Source of the DNA: Psilocybe cubensis
Taxonomy: Eukaryota
Assembly: GCA_017499595.2 (NCBI GenBank)
Contig: CM038999.1
Coordinates: forward strand, 4,278,001-4,331,851
Length of the DNA stretch: 53,851 nucleotides
Reading direction: 5' to 3'
A program made the translations under genes and the position numbers. A model generated the notes under the pieces. The model did no database searches, was not told where the DNA came from, and was given only the letters and a program-made list of their open reading frames with translations. Below, in pieces: positions 31,072 to 53,851 of this stretch; positions within the stretch are counted from its first letter, which is position 1, and each line of letters starts with the position of its first letter.

Positions 31072-32513
31072 GGGGGGGAGCGAGCACCGAGCGAAGCGAG
31101 GTGCGAGCGACTAGTTTAAACTGTGAGTTTGAAATAGAAAGAAGGCCAGAGGGCTGTTTGGGGGTACAAACGGCCAGCCCTTTCGTCTTTATAGACTCTT
31201 CAGTGGCTATTCTTAGAAGGAATGTTCTGGAACATCCGATGACAGCGCGTGAAGTGATGCTGCGCAGCTGTCATGTATCTTACCGACTATCACAAATCTG
31301 TCAATGTTTATTGTCAAGTTAGACAGGTCTCTGATGAACAGAGTGTCACGGGTCAATGTGGCACATGGTAACCTGTCAAAAGTGGATCCAACACTTTTGT
31401 TCTTTGACATCGTGGGTTATTGACTGTGATGTGAATCACATGGATATAGATTACTCTGGTTACGTGGCTCCGAGTAACCGCGACATGGGAATATTCACAT
31501 GTCTAGAGTATAAATAGCTTACCTGGGTCCTTACCTAACAATCAAAAAATAGAATGATTGATTGTTGTGAATCTTAATTGGACAATTCATGATCCGGTCC
31601 ATCAAAAATGTTTCCACGGTACTAAGGAACTTTTCCCGAAGTACTAAGTAACTTTTCCCATGTACTAAATTAGATCCGGCCCTTCACAATCACATGCCGT
31701 TCGGAAGTTCACACGCCTACCTTACTTCCTACTAAGGTTAGACTTAGTTAGCTTAGGGTTGGGGTTAGGTTAGGGCTTAGGGTTTAGGGTTTAGGGTTTA
31801 GGTTTAGGTTTAGCTATTCAATCCAATGTGTTGCTTGTAAGTAGATGTTTGTTACTTTATAGCAATGAATACTTACGGTTAGGGTTTTTTTCTAATGCTT
31901 TACGCCTTAAGCGCTAGTATTCTTTTCATCGGTTGTAAGATTTGGATATTCTGCCGAATTCTGGATGTTCCCTCTCTTGTGAGATTGAACGTCTATGAAG
32001 TATTATCTCGTTATCGCTTTCGATACTTATCTGTTCAGCAGCTTCAACTAGAGCAGAATGATAAGTTTCATTAACGTTTTGAGTTTCGGGAACAACACCA
32101 CCTTTTTCGGCAATGTCTTCATCCAGTTTACGAAAAACTGTTTTCTTCCACACATTTGCAAGGTCGAAAAGATTAGTATTGCGCTTTCGCGATACTATCC
32201 AACGACTTCCGAGTAGTCCTATCTTCCTCAAATCCGGTACGAACTCAGTTTCTCCGTCCACGAGGATCTGTGTGAACAGCTCCGGGCGAACATCATCGAG
32301 GTCGTGAACGTAATTTGGATCTGGTTTGATAAGGGGTCTGGACGAGTCTGCACTATACAGACCTTTCTCGGCATGTTCATACCATGCCGACCAGTACTCG
32401 GTAACAGTTTTTCCAAGTTCAGCAGCTGAAAACCAATTCCATACCTGATCAAACCTGGTTTTAAGTACAAGAATGGATTCGTCGTGCTCTGCGACTCGTA
32501 AAGCAAATCGCTT
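31072..32513 (-). mobile_element. PLE unit 5, heavily 5'-truncated (ORF tail 31926-32513); hammerhead at 31145-31207
   Basis: pLTR plus C-terminal ORF tail, capped by TTTAGGG at 32512-32573. Confidence 0.92.
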
Positions 32514-38798: not shown

Positions 38799-38948
38799 CG
38801 GCTCGTGATTTTTTACGGGCGTGGACCAGTGCAAGCAATGGGCGCTACCGTACAGGCAAACGATCACTACATACCGCTCATGACAAAAGAGCAGGCTATT
38901 GCCTATTAAGTCCTTTACCAAGGGACACTCTCATGCCATTGGACATGG
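38799..38948 (-). ncRNA. 3'-terminal 150 nt of the group I intron, at the hammerhead insertion site; truncated and telomere-capped
   Basis: Matches 50050-50199; junction GAAGCCAG|CGGCTCGTG. Confidence 0.9.
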
Positions 38949-45370: not shown

Positions 45371-45507
45371 GGGGGGGAGCGAGCACCGAGCGAAGCGAGG
45401 TGCGAGCGACTAGTTTAAACTGTGAGTTTGAAATAGAAAGAAGGCCAGAGGGCTGTTGGGGGATCCCAACAACCAGCCCTTTCGTCTTTATAGACTCTTC
45501 AGTGGCT
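45371..45507 (-). mobile_element. PLE unit 10, 137-bp stub: terminus plus hammerhead only (45444-45506)
   Basis: Ends at TTCAGTGGCT, followed by TTTAGGG repeats. Confidence 0.9.
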
Positions 45508-46401
45508 TAGGGTTTAGGGTTTTAGGGTTTAGGGTTTAGGGTTTAGGGTTTAGGGGGGGAGCGAGCACCGAGCGAAGCGAGGTGCGAGCGACTAGTTTAA
45601 ACTGTGAGTTTGAAATAGAAAGAAGGCCAGAGGGCTGTTGGGGGATCCCAACAACCAGCCCTTTCGTCTTTATAGACTCTTCAGTGGCTATTCTTAGAAG
45701 GAATGTTCTAGACATCCGATGACAGCGCGTGAAGTGATGCTGCGCAGCTGTCATGTATCTTACCGACTATCACAAATCTGTCAATGTTTATTGTCAAGTT
45801 AGACAGGTCTCTGATGAACAGAGTGTCACGGGTCGATGTGGCACATGGTAACCTGTCAAAAGTGGATCCAACACTTTTGTTCTTTGACATCGTGGGTTAT
45901 TGACTGTGATGTGAATCACATGGATATAGATTACTCTGGTTACGTGGCTCCGAGTAACCGCGACATGGGAATATTCACATGTCTAGAGTATAAATAGCTT
46001 ACCTGGGTCCTTACCTAACAATCAAACAATAGAATGATTGATTGTTGTGAATCTTAATTGGACAGTTCATGATCCGGTCCATCAAAAATGTTTCCACGGT
46101 ACTAAGGAACTTTTCCCGAAGTACTAAGTAACTTTTCCCATGTACTAAATTAGATCCGGCCCTTCACAATCACATGCCGTTCGGAAGTTCACACGCCTAC
46201 CTTACTTCCTACTAAGGTTAGACTTAGTTAGCTTAGGGTTGGGGTTAGGTTAGGGTTTAGGGTTTAGGGTTTAGGGTTTAGGTTTAGCTATTTAATCCAA
46301 AGTGTTGCTTGTAAGTAGATGTTTGTTACTTTATAGCAAGGAATACTTACGGTTAGGGTTTTTTTTCCCAATGCTTTACGCCTTACGCGCTAGTATTCTT
46401 T

Positions 46402-49935: not shown

Positions 49936-50044
49936 GGTAACTGATGGGTGATAGCAAAGTCGTTGGGTTTAGGGGGGGAGCGAGCACCGAGCGAAGCGAG
50001 GTGCGAGCGACTAGTTTAAACTGTGAGTTTGAAATAGAAAGAAG

Positions 50045-51036
50045 GCCAGCGGCTCGTGATTTTTTACGGGCGTGGACCAGTGCAAGCAATGGGCGCTACC
50101 GTACAGGCAAACGATCACTACATACCGCTCATGACAAAAGAGCAGGCTATTGCCTATTAAGTCCTTTACCAAGGGACACTCTCATGCCATTGGACATGGC
50201 AGGCTAATACCCTTTAAGCCCTTTACCAAGGGGCGCCACATCAGCCATTACAGCCACAGGTTCATTTCCGGCGACGAACTATTTGTCCATCCTTGTGTTA
50301 ACTCCCTTTACTAAGGGGAGGCCGGGTCACCCGCGTTTTAAGCGGTTCTGGACTTCGGGCCGTCCTCGTAAGCAGCGAGGCGCGGTTTAGATACCAGATG
50401 TGGGTTTCCCCACTCCCAAGACTATATCTTAAGATCCGAAGACCCCACTACCACCTAGTCGTTGAACGCTTCCGTCGGCGTGACCGTTACGGATTCGCTG
50501 CTGATTATCCATTCCAGCTTTCGCTGAATCTTGGGGATTGTTACCATACCCGGTCGCCACCGGTGCCTAGGCTGTTTCCAGCGGTCGGCGGTACCCACAA
50601 GCTTTAGGACGTCCCAGCAATTCGGTAGTGTCGCCGGCTGCAACCGACTTGCCAGGAGCGTATCCAGCAGAGCTGGTCCTGACAACCCCCAGTGTACTCT
50701 CACCTGATGTCCATACCCATTGAAGAACTGCGCGCCCTCGAATTACAAAGTCATCATAGCTGGATATCCCCGCAGCTAGACTAAAACGAGTTTGTATGAC
50801 CTCCGTAACCCAACATAGAAGGCGTGAGCGAGTGAAAGAAAAAGGGCCCCGCTTGCCGTGAGGCAGCCAACATGTCGATGAAACGTCCCCGAGTCAAGGG
50901 CAAGATCAGTGACGAAAGGGCTCCCGGATGAGTTGGGAAGGCACAAGCGGCAGGAGTTTGGGAGAGGACGAGTACTTGAGGGCTGTTGGGGGATCCCAAC
51001 AACCAGCCCTTTCGTCTTTATAGACTCTTCAGTGGC
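50045..51036 (-). ncRNA. Hammerhead ribozyme split by the group I intron (halves 51036-50979 and 50049-50045)
   Basis: Removing 50050-50978 restores exactly GCCAG|AGGGCTG as in intact copies. Confidence 0.88.
50050..50978 (-). ncRNA. Group I intron (IC1-like), 929 nt, no homing endonuclease, inserted in the hammerhead core
   Basis: 5' exon ends in U and intron ends in G; IGS GGGGUUGU 50682-50689; P AAUUGCUGGGA 50612-50622; Q AAUCAGCAGC 50497-50506; R GUUCAACGACUAG 50455-50467; S AAGAUAUAGUC 50420-50430; P3 CACUACC/GGUAGUG; P8 UUCG and P9 GAAA loops. Confidence 0.93.
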
Positions 51037-51702
51037 TATTCTTAGAAGGAATGTTCTAGACATCCGATGACAGCGCGTGAAGTGATGCTGCGCAGCTGTC
51101 ATGTATCTTACCGACTATCACAAATCTGTCAATGTTTATTGTCAAGTTAGACAGGTCTCTGATGAACAGAGTGTCACGGGTCGATGTGGCACATGGTAAC
51201 CTGTCAAAAGTGGATCCAACACTTTTGTTCTTTGACATCGTGGGTTATTGACTGTGATGTGAATCACATGGATATAGATTACTCTGGTTACGTGGCTCCG
51301 AGTAACCGCGACATGGGAATATTCACATGTCTAGAGTATAAATAGCTTACCTGGGTCCTTACCTAACAATCAAACAATAGAATGATTGATTGTTGTGAAT
51401 CTTAATTGGACAGTTCATGATCCGGTCCATCAAAAATGTTTCCACGGTACTAAGGAACTTTTCCCGAAGTACTAAGTAACTTTTCCCATGTACTAAATTA
51501 GATCCGGCCCTTCACAATCACATGCCGTTCGGAAGTTCACACGCCTACCTTACTTCCTACTAAGGTTAGACTTAGTTAGCTTAGGGTTGGGGTTAGGTTA
51601 GGGTTTAGGGTTTAGGGTTTAGGGTTTAGGTTTAGCTATTTAATCCAAAGTGTTGCTTGTAAGTAGATGTTTGTTACTTTATAGCAAGGAATACTTACGG
51701 TT

Positions 51703-52631
51703 CGGCTCGTGATTTTTTACGGGCGTGGACCAGTGCAAGCAATGGGCGCTACCGTACAGGCAAACGATCACTACATACCGCTCATGACAAAAGAGCAGGC
51801 TATTGCCTATTAAGTCCTTTACCAAGGGACACTCTCATGCCATTGGACATGGCAGGCTAATACCCTTTAAGCCCTTTACCAAGGGGCGCCACATCAGCCA
51901 TTACAGCCACAGGTTCATTTCCGGCGACGAACTATTTGTCCATCCTTGTGTTAACTCCCTTTACTAAGGGGAGGCCGGGTCACCCGCGTTTTAAGCGGTT
52001 CTGGACTTCGGGCCGTCCTCGTAAGCAGCGAGGCGCGGTTTAGATACCAGATGTGGGTTTCCCCACTCCCAAGACTATATCTTAAGATCCGAAGACCCCA
52101 CTACCACCTAGTCGTTGAACGCTTCCGTCGGCGTGACCGTTACGGATTCGCTGCTGATTATCCATTCCAGCTTTCGCTGAATCTTGGGGATTGTTACCAT
52201 ACCCGGTCGCCACCGGTGCCTAGGCTGTTTCCAGCGGTCGGCGGTACCCACAAGCTTTAGGACGTCCCAGCAATTCGGTAGTGTCGCCGGCTGCAACCGA
52301 CTTGCCAGGAGCGTATCCAGCAGAGCTGGTCCTGACAACCCCCAGTGTACTCTCACCTGATGTCCATACCCATTGAAGAACTGCGCGCCCTCGAATTACA
52401 AAGTCATCATAGCTGGATATCCCCGCAGCTAGACTAAAACGAGTTTGTATGACCTCCGTAACCCAACATAGAAGGCGTGAGCGAGTGAAAGAAAAAGGGC
52501 CCCGCTTGCCGTGAGGCAGCCAACATGTCGATGAAACGTCCCCGAGTCAAGGGCAAGATCAGTGACGAAAGGGCTCCCGGATGAGTTGGGAAGGCACAAG
52601 CGGCAGGAGTTTGGGAGAGGACGAGTACTTG
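51703..52631 (-). ncRNA. Second full copy of the 929-nt group I intron, inserted at AAAACCCU|AACCG in the 3' UTR
   Basis: Appears identical to 50050-50978 (offset 1653); removal restores TTACGGTT|AGGGTTTTTT with no target duplication. Confidence 0.93.
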
Positions 52632-52865
52632 AGGGTTTTTTTTCCAATGCTTTACGCCTTACGCGCTAGTATTCTTTTCATCGGTTGTAAGATTTGGATA
52701 TTCTGCCGAATTCTGGATGTTCCCTCTCTTGTGAGATTGAACGTCTATGAAGTATTATCTCGTTATCACTTTCGATACTTATCTGTTCAGCAGCTTCAAC
52801 TTTTTCAGCGATGTTTAGGGTTTAGGGTTTAGGGTTTAGGGTTTAGGGTTTAGGGTTTAGGTTTA

Positions 52866-53654: not shown

Positions 53655-53851
53655 TTTAGGGTTTAGGGTTTAGGGTTTTAGGGTTTAGGGTTTAGGGTTT
53701 AGGGTTTAGGGTTTAGGGTTTAGGGTTTAGGGTTTAGGGTTTAGGGTTTAGGGTTTAGGGTTTAGGGTTTAGGGTTTAGGGTTTAGGGTTTAGGGTTTAG
53801 GGTTTAGGGTTTAGGGTTTAGGGTTTAGGGTTTAGGGTTTAGGGTTTAGGG
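53655..53851 (+). repeat. Terminal telomeric tract (TTTAGGG)n, G-strand on +, chromosome end
   Basis: About 28 near-perfect TTTAGGG units run to the end of the window, with a few TTTTAGGG/TTTAGGGG variants. Confidence 0.97.

Follow-up and report, generated by a model that had tools for sequence, protein, structure and literature searches.

Two L1 blocks of a group I intron are antisense to the hammerhead ribozyme that it interrupts in a telomeric retroelement of Psilocybe cubensis

We analyzed a stretch of 53,851 nucleotides (nt) of Psilocybe cubensis (GCA_017499595.2, contig CM038999.1, 4,278,001 to 4,331,851; hereafter "the window", with positions counted from its first letter) in which a 929-nt group I intron (50050-50978, minus strand) interrupts the hammerhead ribozyme of a telomeric Penelope-like element (PLE). 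The L1 loop of this intron carries two blocks that are perfectly complementary to the hammerhead half in the 5' exon. The first is the 12-mer AGCCCUUUCGUC (intron nt 57-68; 50911-50922, minus strand), which complements GACGAAAGGGCU (51005-51016, minus strand), i.e., the 3' strand of stem II (GAC), the core GAAA and the 5' strand of stem III (GGGCU). The second is the 7-mer UCCCAAC (intron nt 41-47; 50932-50938, minus strand), which complements GUUGGGA (50994-51000, minus strand), the 5' strand of upper stem III with the first loop base. Both complementarities had been noted in an initial annotation, and both are present at the positions given, including the colinearity of the second with the first. 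The 12-bp and 7-bp helices enclose an internal loop of 4 x 9 nt, and the two blocks together are antisense to 19 of 23 nt, from the stem II 3' strand via GAAA to the top of the stem III 5' strand. By reading, two perfect blocks with unrelated flanks are unlike a decayed long palindrome. We tentatively favor the view that they form a lineage-specific intron-exon clamp serving as an anchor or guide.

The pairing was compared with shuffled sequences. When the 929-nt intron was dinucleotide-shuffled and compared with the 75-nt hammerhead exon, a perfect Watson-Crick run of at least 12 arose in 13 of 2000 shuffles; when only L1 was shuffled, the count was 5 of 2000. Given the 12-mer, a colinear run of at least 7 in the adjacent 26 x 30 nt was found in 666 of 20000 shuffles, and the joint probability of a 12-mer plus a colinear 7-mer within L1 is ~8e-5. 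Judged against these shuffles, the two-block pairing is real and non-random, a result that does not by itself separate selection from a copying event. The target of the 12-mer is invariant in all 14 hammerheads of the window, whereas the version complementary to the 7-mer is present in 9 of the 14, the rest differing in upper stem III. All 14 hammerheads keep both the 12-mer target and ACAGCCCU followed by C, the substrate of the intron's P1 helix, and are therefore potential targets.

The 5' exon ends in the 5' part of a type I hammerhead (50979-51037, minus strand), delimited by reading and by comparison with other copies. On the minus strand it consists of the stem I 5' strand AGCCA (51037-51033), the core CUGAAGA (51032-51026), stem II with its loop (GUC, UAUAAA, GAC; 51025-51014), the core GAAA (51013-51010), the stem III 5' strand GGGCU (51009-51005) with the bulge GGUU next to it, upper stem III GUUGGG (51000-50995) and the loop AUCC, the upper stem III 3' strand CCCAAC (50990-50985), and the lower stem III 3' strand AGCCC (50984-50980), which is followed by U16.1 (50979). 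The 3' exon begins with C17 (50049) and the stem I 3' strand UGGCC (together 50044-50049, minus strand), identical to intronless copies, and is followed by a tail of ~80 nt and (CCCUAAA)n, the 3' end of the element. In each element the hammerhead lies ~85 nt upstream of the telomeric repeats, with the consensus AGCCA-CUGAAGA-GUC-UAUAAA-GAC-GAAA-GGGCU...AGCCC-U-C and, after the cleavage site, UGGC(C/U). The core was found in 14 copies in the window, 13 of them uninterrupted and reading ...AACAGCCCUC directly before UGGC. Rfam aligns the complete hammerhead architecture below the gathering thresholds (RAGATH-1, 25.3 bits against 56.3; Hammerhead_3, 19.5 bits against 48.5). A motif scan of 80 related metagenomic loci returned 49 three-stem hammerheads in 40 of the 80, all on the sense strand of the reverse transcriptase (RT) and differing in stem sequence. 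Fungal PLE hammerheads are described as type I with a long helix III, and that of the Serpula lacrymans PLE self-cleaves in vitro (excerpts of PMC4209133). We accept the structure as a hammerhead of this known PLE type, with self-cleavage predicted. Upper stem III varies among the window copies; the copy at 31176 has GUUUG/CAAAC, which by reading would keep the pairing. A plus-strand hammerhead around 50880-50940 was ruled out by reading, as there is no CUGANGA.

That a group I intron with an enlarged L1 sits inside this hammerhead, as first annotated, is confirmed by Rfam and by the intronless copies. RF00028 matches at 50694-50398 on the minus strand (model positions 1-253, 70.9 bits with a gathering threshold of 50, E 4.7e-16). 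The intron follows ...AACAGCCCU, starts with CAAGUACUC..., ends with ...CACGAGCCG and is followed by CUGGCCUUC...; the 5' splice site lies between 50979 and 50978, omega-G is 50050, and the 3' junction reads ...GAGCCG and then CUGGCC. Removal of 50978-50050 restores AACAGCCCU-CUGGCC, i.e., AACAGCCCUCUGGCC, as in intronless copies. Relative to the 13 intronless hammerheads the insertion is precise: it lies exactly between U16.1 and C17, and the intron follows a U and ends in G. On sequence grounds the intron is IC1-like and mobile, and it is predicted to splice. The internal guide sequence (IGS) GGGGGUUGU (50682-50690, minus strand) pairs with ACAGCCCU and the following C as P1, with a U-G pair at the splice site, and lies 288-296 nt downstream of the 5' splice site, in agreement with the ~290 nt first given. 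The P1 extension adds 6 bp between GAGUAC (50694-50699, minus strand) and the intron's GUACUC (50975-50970); the cofold energy of P1 with its extension is -23.8 kcal/mol. Reading and cofolding also uphold the placement of the P1 substrate ACAGCCCU within the 3' strand of stem III. A homing-endonuclease open reading frame (ORF) in L1 was rejected, since stop-to-stop frames that overlap the intron reach at most 112 aa.

Two further copies of the intron are present in the window. A complete one (51703-52631, minus strand; 933 of 933 aligned nt identical, with the same 12-mer at 52575-52564 and an identical RF00028 match of 70.9 bits at 52347-52051, minus strand) occupies an ectopic site of the same element, ~730 nt further upstream, as a precise insertion between GAAAAAAACCCU and AACCGUAAG. 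The ectopic site has no hammerhead, and 9 intronless copies of it served for comparison. In RNAfold the same IGS pairs with the 5' exon of this site, with P1 in the minimum free energy (MFE) structure. As matches to the IGS target, the two sites share only CCCU directly before the insertion point. The spread of group I introns by reverse splicing followed by reverse transcription has long been proposed, and two sites that share CCCU are as expected from that route. The other copy consists of the last 150 nt of the intron (38799-38948, minus strand; 150 of 150 identical) at the telomere-capped 5' end of a 5'-truncated element. That element is truncated inside the intron; therefore, unspliced intron-bearing RNA (or DNA) has been propagated.

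In folds of 201, 406, 461 and 1251 nt, the 12-bp helix has a probability of 0.95-1.0, with 0.63-0.65 for its last pair, and blocking the 12-mer costs ~7.4 kcal/mol (-157.3 vs -149.9). Thus, by these predictions, the 12-bp helix very probably forms. The initial annotation had suggested folding exon and intron together as a check, and the outcome is divided: the 12-bp helix is predicted, whereas the 7-bp helix has a probability of 0 in unconstrained folds and appears only when the P1 strands are reserved. In this constrained fold, upper stem III pairs with L1 just upstream of the 12-mer, which we read as the 7-mer helix from the dot-bracket string, whose partners were not mapped to coordinates. 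The order of the segments (exon block, P1 5' strand at 50986-50979, L1 block, IGS) makes a pseudoknot of P1 and the L1 pairing. In the excised intron the CUUUC centre of the 12-mer is mostly unpaired (predicted probability of pairing, 0.06-0.38), and GAAA of the folded hammerhead is likewise predicted to be unpaired; nucleation between them would therefore be possible.

Relatives were sought in 80 RT-related metagenomic loci, 20 of which were run through Rfam and the other 60 screened by blastn and nhmmer only. A metagenome scan with a 22-nt pattern from P7/P3 of the intron gave no matches, and Rfam at the gathering threshold gave none in the 20 loci; related introns emerged only at the E-value threshold, with 31.6-39.6 bits. 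Homologous introns are present in 4 of the 80 loci, always on the RT strand, between hammerhead and ORF, and near the hammerhead and tail. These are L049 (444-1514, RT strand, 34.2 bits), L063 (~957-1321, RT strand, 31.6 bits), L068 (1-~655, RT strand, 39.6 bits, in a contig that begins inside the intron) and L079 (~1040-1380, RT strand), whose element is 5'-truncated inside the intron 3' domain. The L079 truncation parallels the 38799-38948 copy of the window. The L049 intron follows UUAACU, 4 nt after the hammerhead cleavage site, and has the IGS GGUUAA and an L1 of ~154 nt; an enlarged L1 is therefore a trait of the family. The L063 intron sits about 65 nt further on than the L049 position. 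This distribution points to an intron family long associated with these retroelements, outside ribosomal DNA (rDNA).

The two blocks themselves are not shared by the relatives. Neither L049 nor L063 has anything corresponding to the first ~150 nt of the P. cubensis L1, where both blocks lie; nhmmer with L1 alone returned nothing at E <=10 among the 80 loci, none of which carries the antisense 12-mer on its RT-sense strand. Among the sequences compared, the pairing is lineage-specific, and L049, a relative located beside and not inside a strong stem, does not appear to need it. No homologue was found in which this L1 segment accompanies a different hammerhead, and the adaptation to the host site suggested in the initial annotation is conjectural. 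L063 was excluded from the exon-L1 comparison, as its 5' splice site could not be fixed. Seventeen public runs from 8 studies cover part of the window, and contigs of four of them, all DNA, were compared. A contig of run X11, which carries another organism label, covers 50746-50947 with one difference, at 50865, and leaves the 12-mer and 7-mer unchanged. Across organism labels the intron is at least 97% identical. Run X10 contains two L1 alleles over 50683-50835, one with 13 differences and 2 gaps and the other with 3 differences. Among the public runs, the intron varies most in the distal part of L1 (50742-50805): within 153 nt, one X10 allele has 13 differences and a 2-nt deletion, whereas the core and 3' domain have 8 differences in 561 nt. 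Run X8 has intronless joints that skip the 929 nt.

On the reading that we tentatively favor, L1 would act as an accessory exon-binding site. Both blocks are transcribed 41-68 nt after the splice site and ~220 nt ahead of the IGS; the 12-mer could therefore nucleate where GAAA is single-stranded and stem II, of 3 bp, is weak, and so clamp the 5' half of the hammerhead. The clamp would keep this half out of its native fold and, during both steps of splicing, hold the 5' exon and the intron together. The upper stem III strand may be bound by the 7-mer only when ACAGCCCU is bound by the IGS. In reverse splicing, the two blocks and the IGS would give the free intron ~27 nt of recognition of other hammerhead copies. 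That the pairings affect splicing, the hammerhead or mobility at all is our inference. A stronger form, in which the L1 blocks are a natural second guide that together with the IGS steers the free intron into hammerheads of telomeric retroelement transcripts, the RT of the element then fixing the insertion at the chromosome end, seems rather unlikely to us.

Several results count against the clamp. First, stem III (50979-51010, minus strand) has two near-isoenergetic registers, the native one (GGGCU/AGCCC with GUUGGG/CCCAAC) at -17.3 kcal/mol and a shifted one at -17.0 kcal/mol. With the 12-mer paired, the bulge GGUU slides in and GGUUGUUGGG re-pairs with CCCAACAGCC; ACAGCC therefore stays paired. 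Second, we compared states in a model in which the P1 strands are reserved and the P1 cofold energy (-23.8) is added by hand, because P1 and the clamp form a pseudoknot that RNAfold cannot treat; the numbers are rough. With the clamp, the model gives ~-155.7 with P1 formed and -157.3 with P1 unformed; with the 12-mer blocked, the values are -148.0 and -149.9. The clamp thus lowers both P1 states alike, by ~7.5 kcal/mol, and the balance between them differs by ~0.3 kcal/mol, a figure that includes the hand-added P1 term. The original proposal that the 12-mer strips stem III and frees ACAGCCCU to dock on the IGS is supported on neither count: the shifted hairpin is predicted to form, and in the model neither P1 state clearly gains over the other. 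The model numbers lend it no support, and they would fit joint action of the two blocks and the IGS. Third, the precise ectopic insertion shows, as judged from its sequence, insertion by the IGS alone, for which the clamp would be dispensable. Fourth, in L049, the only homologue with clear boundaries, the best exon-L1 run is 8 nt, a length equalled in 371 of 2000 shuffles, and its fold has P1 in the MFE structure unaided and lacks an exon-L1 helix. Fifth, a 12-bp clamp could slow the release of the ligated exons. Sixth, the contigs showed neither a variant 12-mer nor a variant target, and therefore no covariation; those of X8 and X10, with the divergent alleles, lack cover of 50896/50884-50977, and none of the four runs covers 50948-50977. 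Lastly, the energy of the pairing is less striking than its position. Full-length duplex energy was uninformative (338 of 500 shuffles were as good), and windowed duplexes were used in its place; since the exon is rich in G and C, 7 of 93 shuffles equalled the best local energy, -34.9. Elsewhere in the 54-kb window, two unrelated places match the intron exactly over 12 nt. What makes the 12-mer notable is therefore its position and the second block, not the run by itself.

There is a second explanation for the two blocks that we consider possible and nearly as likely as an anchor or guide. A 23-nt piece of the hammerhead (GACGAAAGGGCU-GGUU-GUUGGGA) may have been copied inverted into L1, for instance through a template switch while the retroelement was being reverse-transcribed or its second strand synthesized, with the spacer AACC later becoming UCAUCCGGG. 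The helix might then form as an unselected, neutral relic with no useful role. The reverse complement of the exon 23-mer fits L1 50938-50911 at all 19 paired positions, the only replacement being the spacer (AACC vs UCAUCCGGG), and one small inverted copy plus one indel would suffice. PLEs are known for inverted, truncated copies beside their repeats (excerpts of PMC8557442). The intron copies are 100% identical, and at least 97% identity is kept across labels, which leaves little time for decay; perfect blocks would need no selection. The absence of a benefit to P1 in the state model and the ability of L049 to manage without the pairing fit a relic as well. Three features are awkward for it, however: the 55 nt between the arms and the outer flanks have no inverted similarity, which is unusual for a fold-back copy; the mismatched part is exactly the internal loop, leaving both helices perfect; and the strand covered by the blocks is precisely the one in competition with P1.

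A third explanation, that the intron, unspliced or excised, silences the hammerhead by sequestering its GAAA core and stem II in cis or in trans until the intron leaves, appears improbable. The spliced hammerhead cofolds with a 41-nt L1 segment at -48.8 kcal/mol, compared with -30.9 kcal/mol for the hammerhead alone. The paired bases include G12-A15.1, which the catalytic core of hammerheads requires, and they lie in the target that is invariant in 14 of 14 copies. As a related fungal PLE hammerhead cleaves in vitro (excerpts of PMC4209133), there is an activity to control. In cis, however, the hammerhead is already split, and silencing would be redundant before splicing; the suggestion in the initial annotation that the pairing inactivates the hammerhead is largely moot, as the intron already parts U16.1 and C17 by 929 nt. 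In trans, stoichiometric inhibition seems weak with the intron in only 1 of 14 full hammerheads of the window, and there is no evident benefit to intron or element. Least probable of all is that a GC-rich intron and a hammerhead stem rich in G and C are complementary by chance and that close inspection brought this to notice, for although local duplex energy, the stray 12-mer matches and the 13 whole-intron shuffles with a 12-nt run leave some room for it, the joint figure for the two blocks and their position on the strand opposite the P1 substrate, <70 nt from the splice site, speak against it.

The nearest concepts to an exon-binding clamp are, by analogy, the competition between P(-1) and P1 in Tetrahymena and the two-part exon binding of group II introns. 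In Tetrahymena pre-rRNA, the 5' exon hairpin P(-1) holds the P1 substrate strand and competes with P1, and a third sequence pairing with the other strand of this hairpin would favor P1. Here stem III (-17.3 kcal/mol, containing ACAGCCC) would play the part of P(-1). The relieving sequence of Tetrahymena is exon rRNA, whereas here it would lie inside the intron, in L1, and the register shift of the hairpin would cancel the predicted relief. In group II introns the exon-binding and intron-binding sites (EBS1/EBS2-IBS1/IBS2) likewise pair two intron segments with two adjacent segments of the 5' exon; these pairings serve both splicing and the choice of target in reverse splicing, and an RT copies the inserted intron. 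Group II introns are a different class of ribozyme, however, and in the present case the RT is that of the host retroelement and the role of the exon pairing is putative. A further parallel is the engineered extended guide sequence (EGS), an antisense block 5' of the IGS that adds affinity beyond a P1 of 6-9 bp, with an internal loop between them, and of which duplexes as short as 8 bp can suffice (excerpts of PMC6155759). The EGS of that source binds its substrate on the 3' side of the splice site, in a duplex that is coaxial with P1 and nested with it (PMC6155759), whereas the L1 blocks (exon 51016-50994) pair 5' of the P1 strand, form a pseudoknot with P1, and belong to a cis-splicing intron ~220 nt from its IGS. 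The label of natural extended guide sequence given to them at first therefore does not apply (compare excerpts of PMC6155759). In our literature searches, which did not extend to supplementary files, no paper came up that places a group I intron inside a hammerhead or any Penelope-like element.

The host element occupies much of the window. Copies of a ~4.6-kb element, arranged head to tail and 5'-truncated to varying extents, make up the first ~6 kb and the last ~30 kb; the element's sense strand is the minus strand, and the plus strand of the window terminates in (TTTAGGG)n. Every copy finishes in ...GCUCGCUCCCCCCC(UAAACCC)n, and the 5'-truncated ends adjoin telomere repeats; in one copy (45475-45520, minus strand) the truncation falls precisely on the stem I 5' strand (GCCACUGAAGAG...), and telomere repeats lie immediately upstream. 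The element ORF encodes 1177 aa with RT motifs and a TDKNLG motif, and residues 520-1000 have 98-99% identity to Psilocybe cubensis proteins. The protein has hundreds of relatives in metagenomes, with precomputed annotations of PF00078, PF28514 and PF26215; a Pfam scan of the 1177-aa protein itself gave no families at E 0.01. The terminal repeat (53660-53851; internally, e.g., 52802-52848) is TTTAGGG with occasional TTTTAGGG, though the element RT matches a basidiomycete. TTTAGGG is a telomere repeat type known from plants.

Four features were found in the element: an RT ORF that lacks GIY-YIG, a terminal location, reverse-complement telomeric repeats at the 3' end beside a hammerhead, and telomere-capped 5' truncations. 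By these it matches the Coprina/Athena type of endonuclease-less Penelope-like elements, a clade assignment made from features and not from a tree. Athena/Coprina PLEs attach to telomeric G-overhangs via reverse-complement telomeric repeats beside a 3'-terminal hammerhead (excerpts of PMC8557442 and PMC6431247). Like the present element, they carry on the RT strand a type I hammerhead whose helix III is long; reverse-complement telomeric repeats follow downstream of it, and 5'-truncated head-to-tail copies are telomere-capped (excerpts of PMC8557442, PMC6431247 and PMC4209133). Drosophila virilis Penelope has a spliceosomal intron that ends at hammerhead helix I (excerpts of PMC4209133).

Three other observations concern L1. 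AGCCCU (50917-50922, minus strand) repeats the last six nt of the exon and might act as a decoy for the IGS or as a cryptic 5' splice site. A further GCCCUUU motif (50841-50847, minus strand) lies 75 nt deeper in L1. The segment 50829-50908 (minus strand) has a weak Rfam match to the bacterial small RNA suhB/mmgR (21.6 bits, E 0.23), with a hairpin and a U-rich run, and this match is most likely due to chance.

If the clamp is functional, this would be a natural group I intron that recognizes its exon by more than P1 and P10, and a case of one ribozyme carrying antisense to the catalytic core of another. The role of the clamp is directly open to mutation and compensation in splicing and reverse-splicing assays. 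A location in a telomere-attached retrotransposon and not in rDNA, two identical copies at sites that share CCCU, a truncated retrotransposed copy, and relatives in 4 of 80 loci make reverse splicing followed by reverse transcription observable in a natural system. Should the less probable second-guide reading be true, these introns would be a nuclear group I family outside rDNA that spreads by RNA-level homing, with antisense tailored to the ribozyme of its host.

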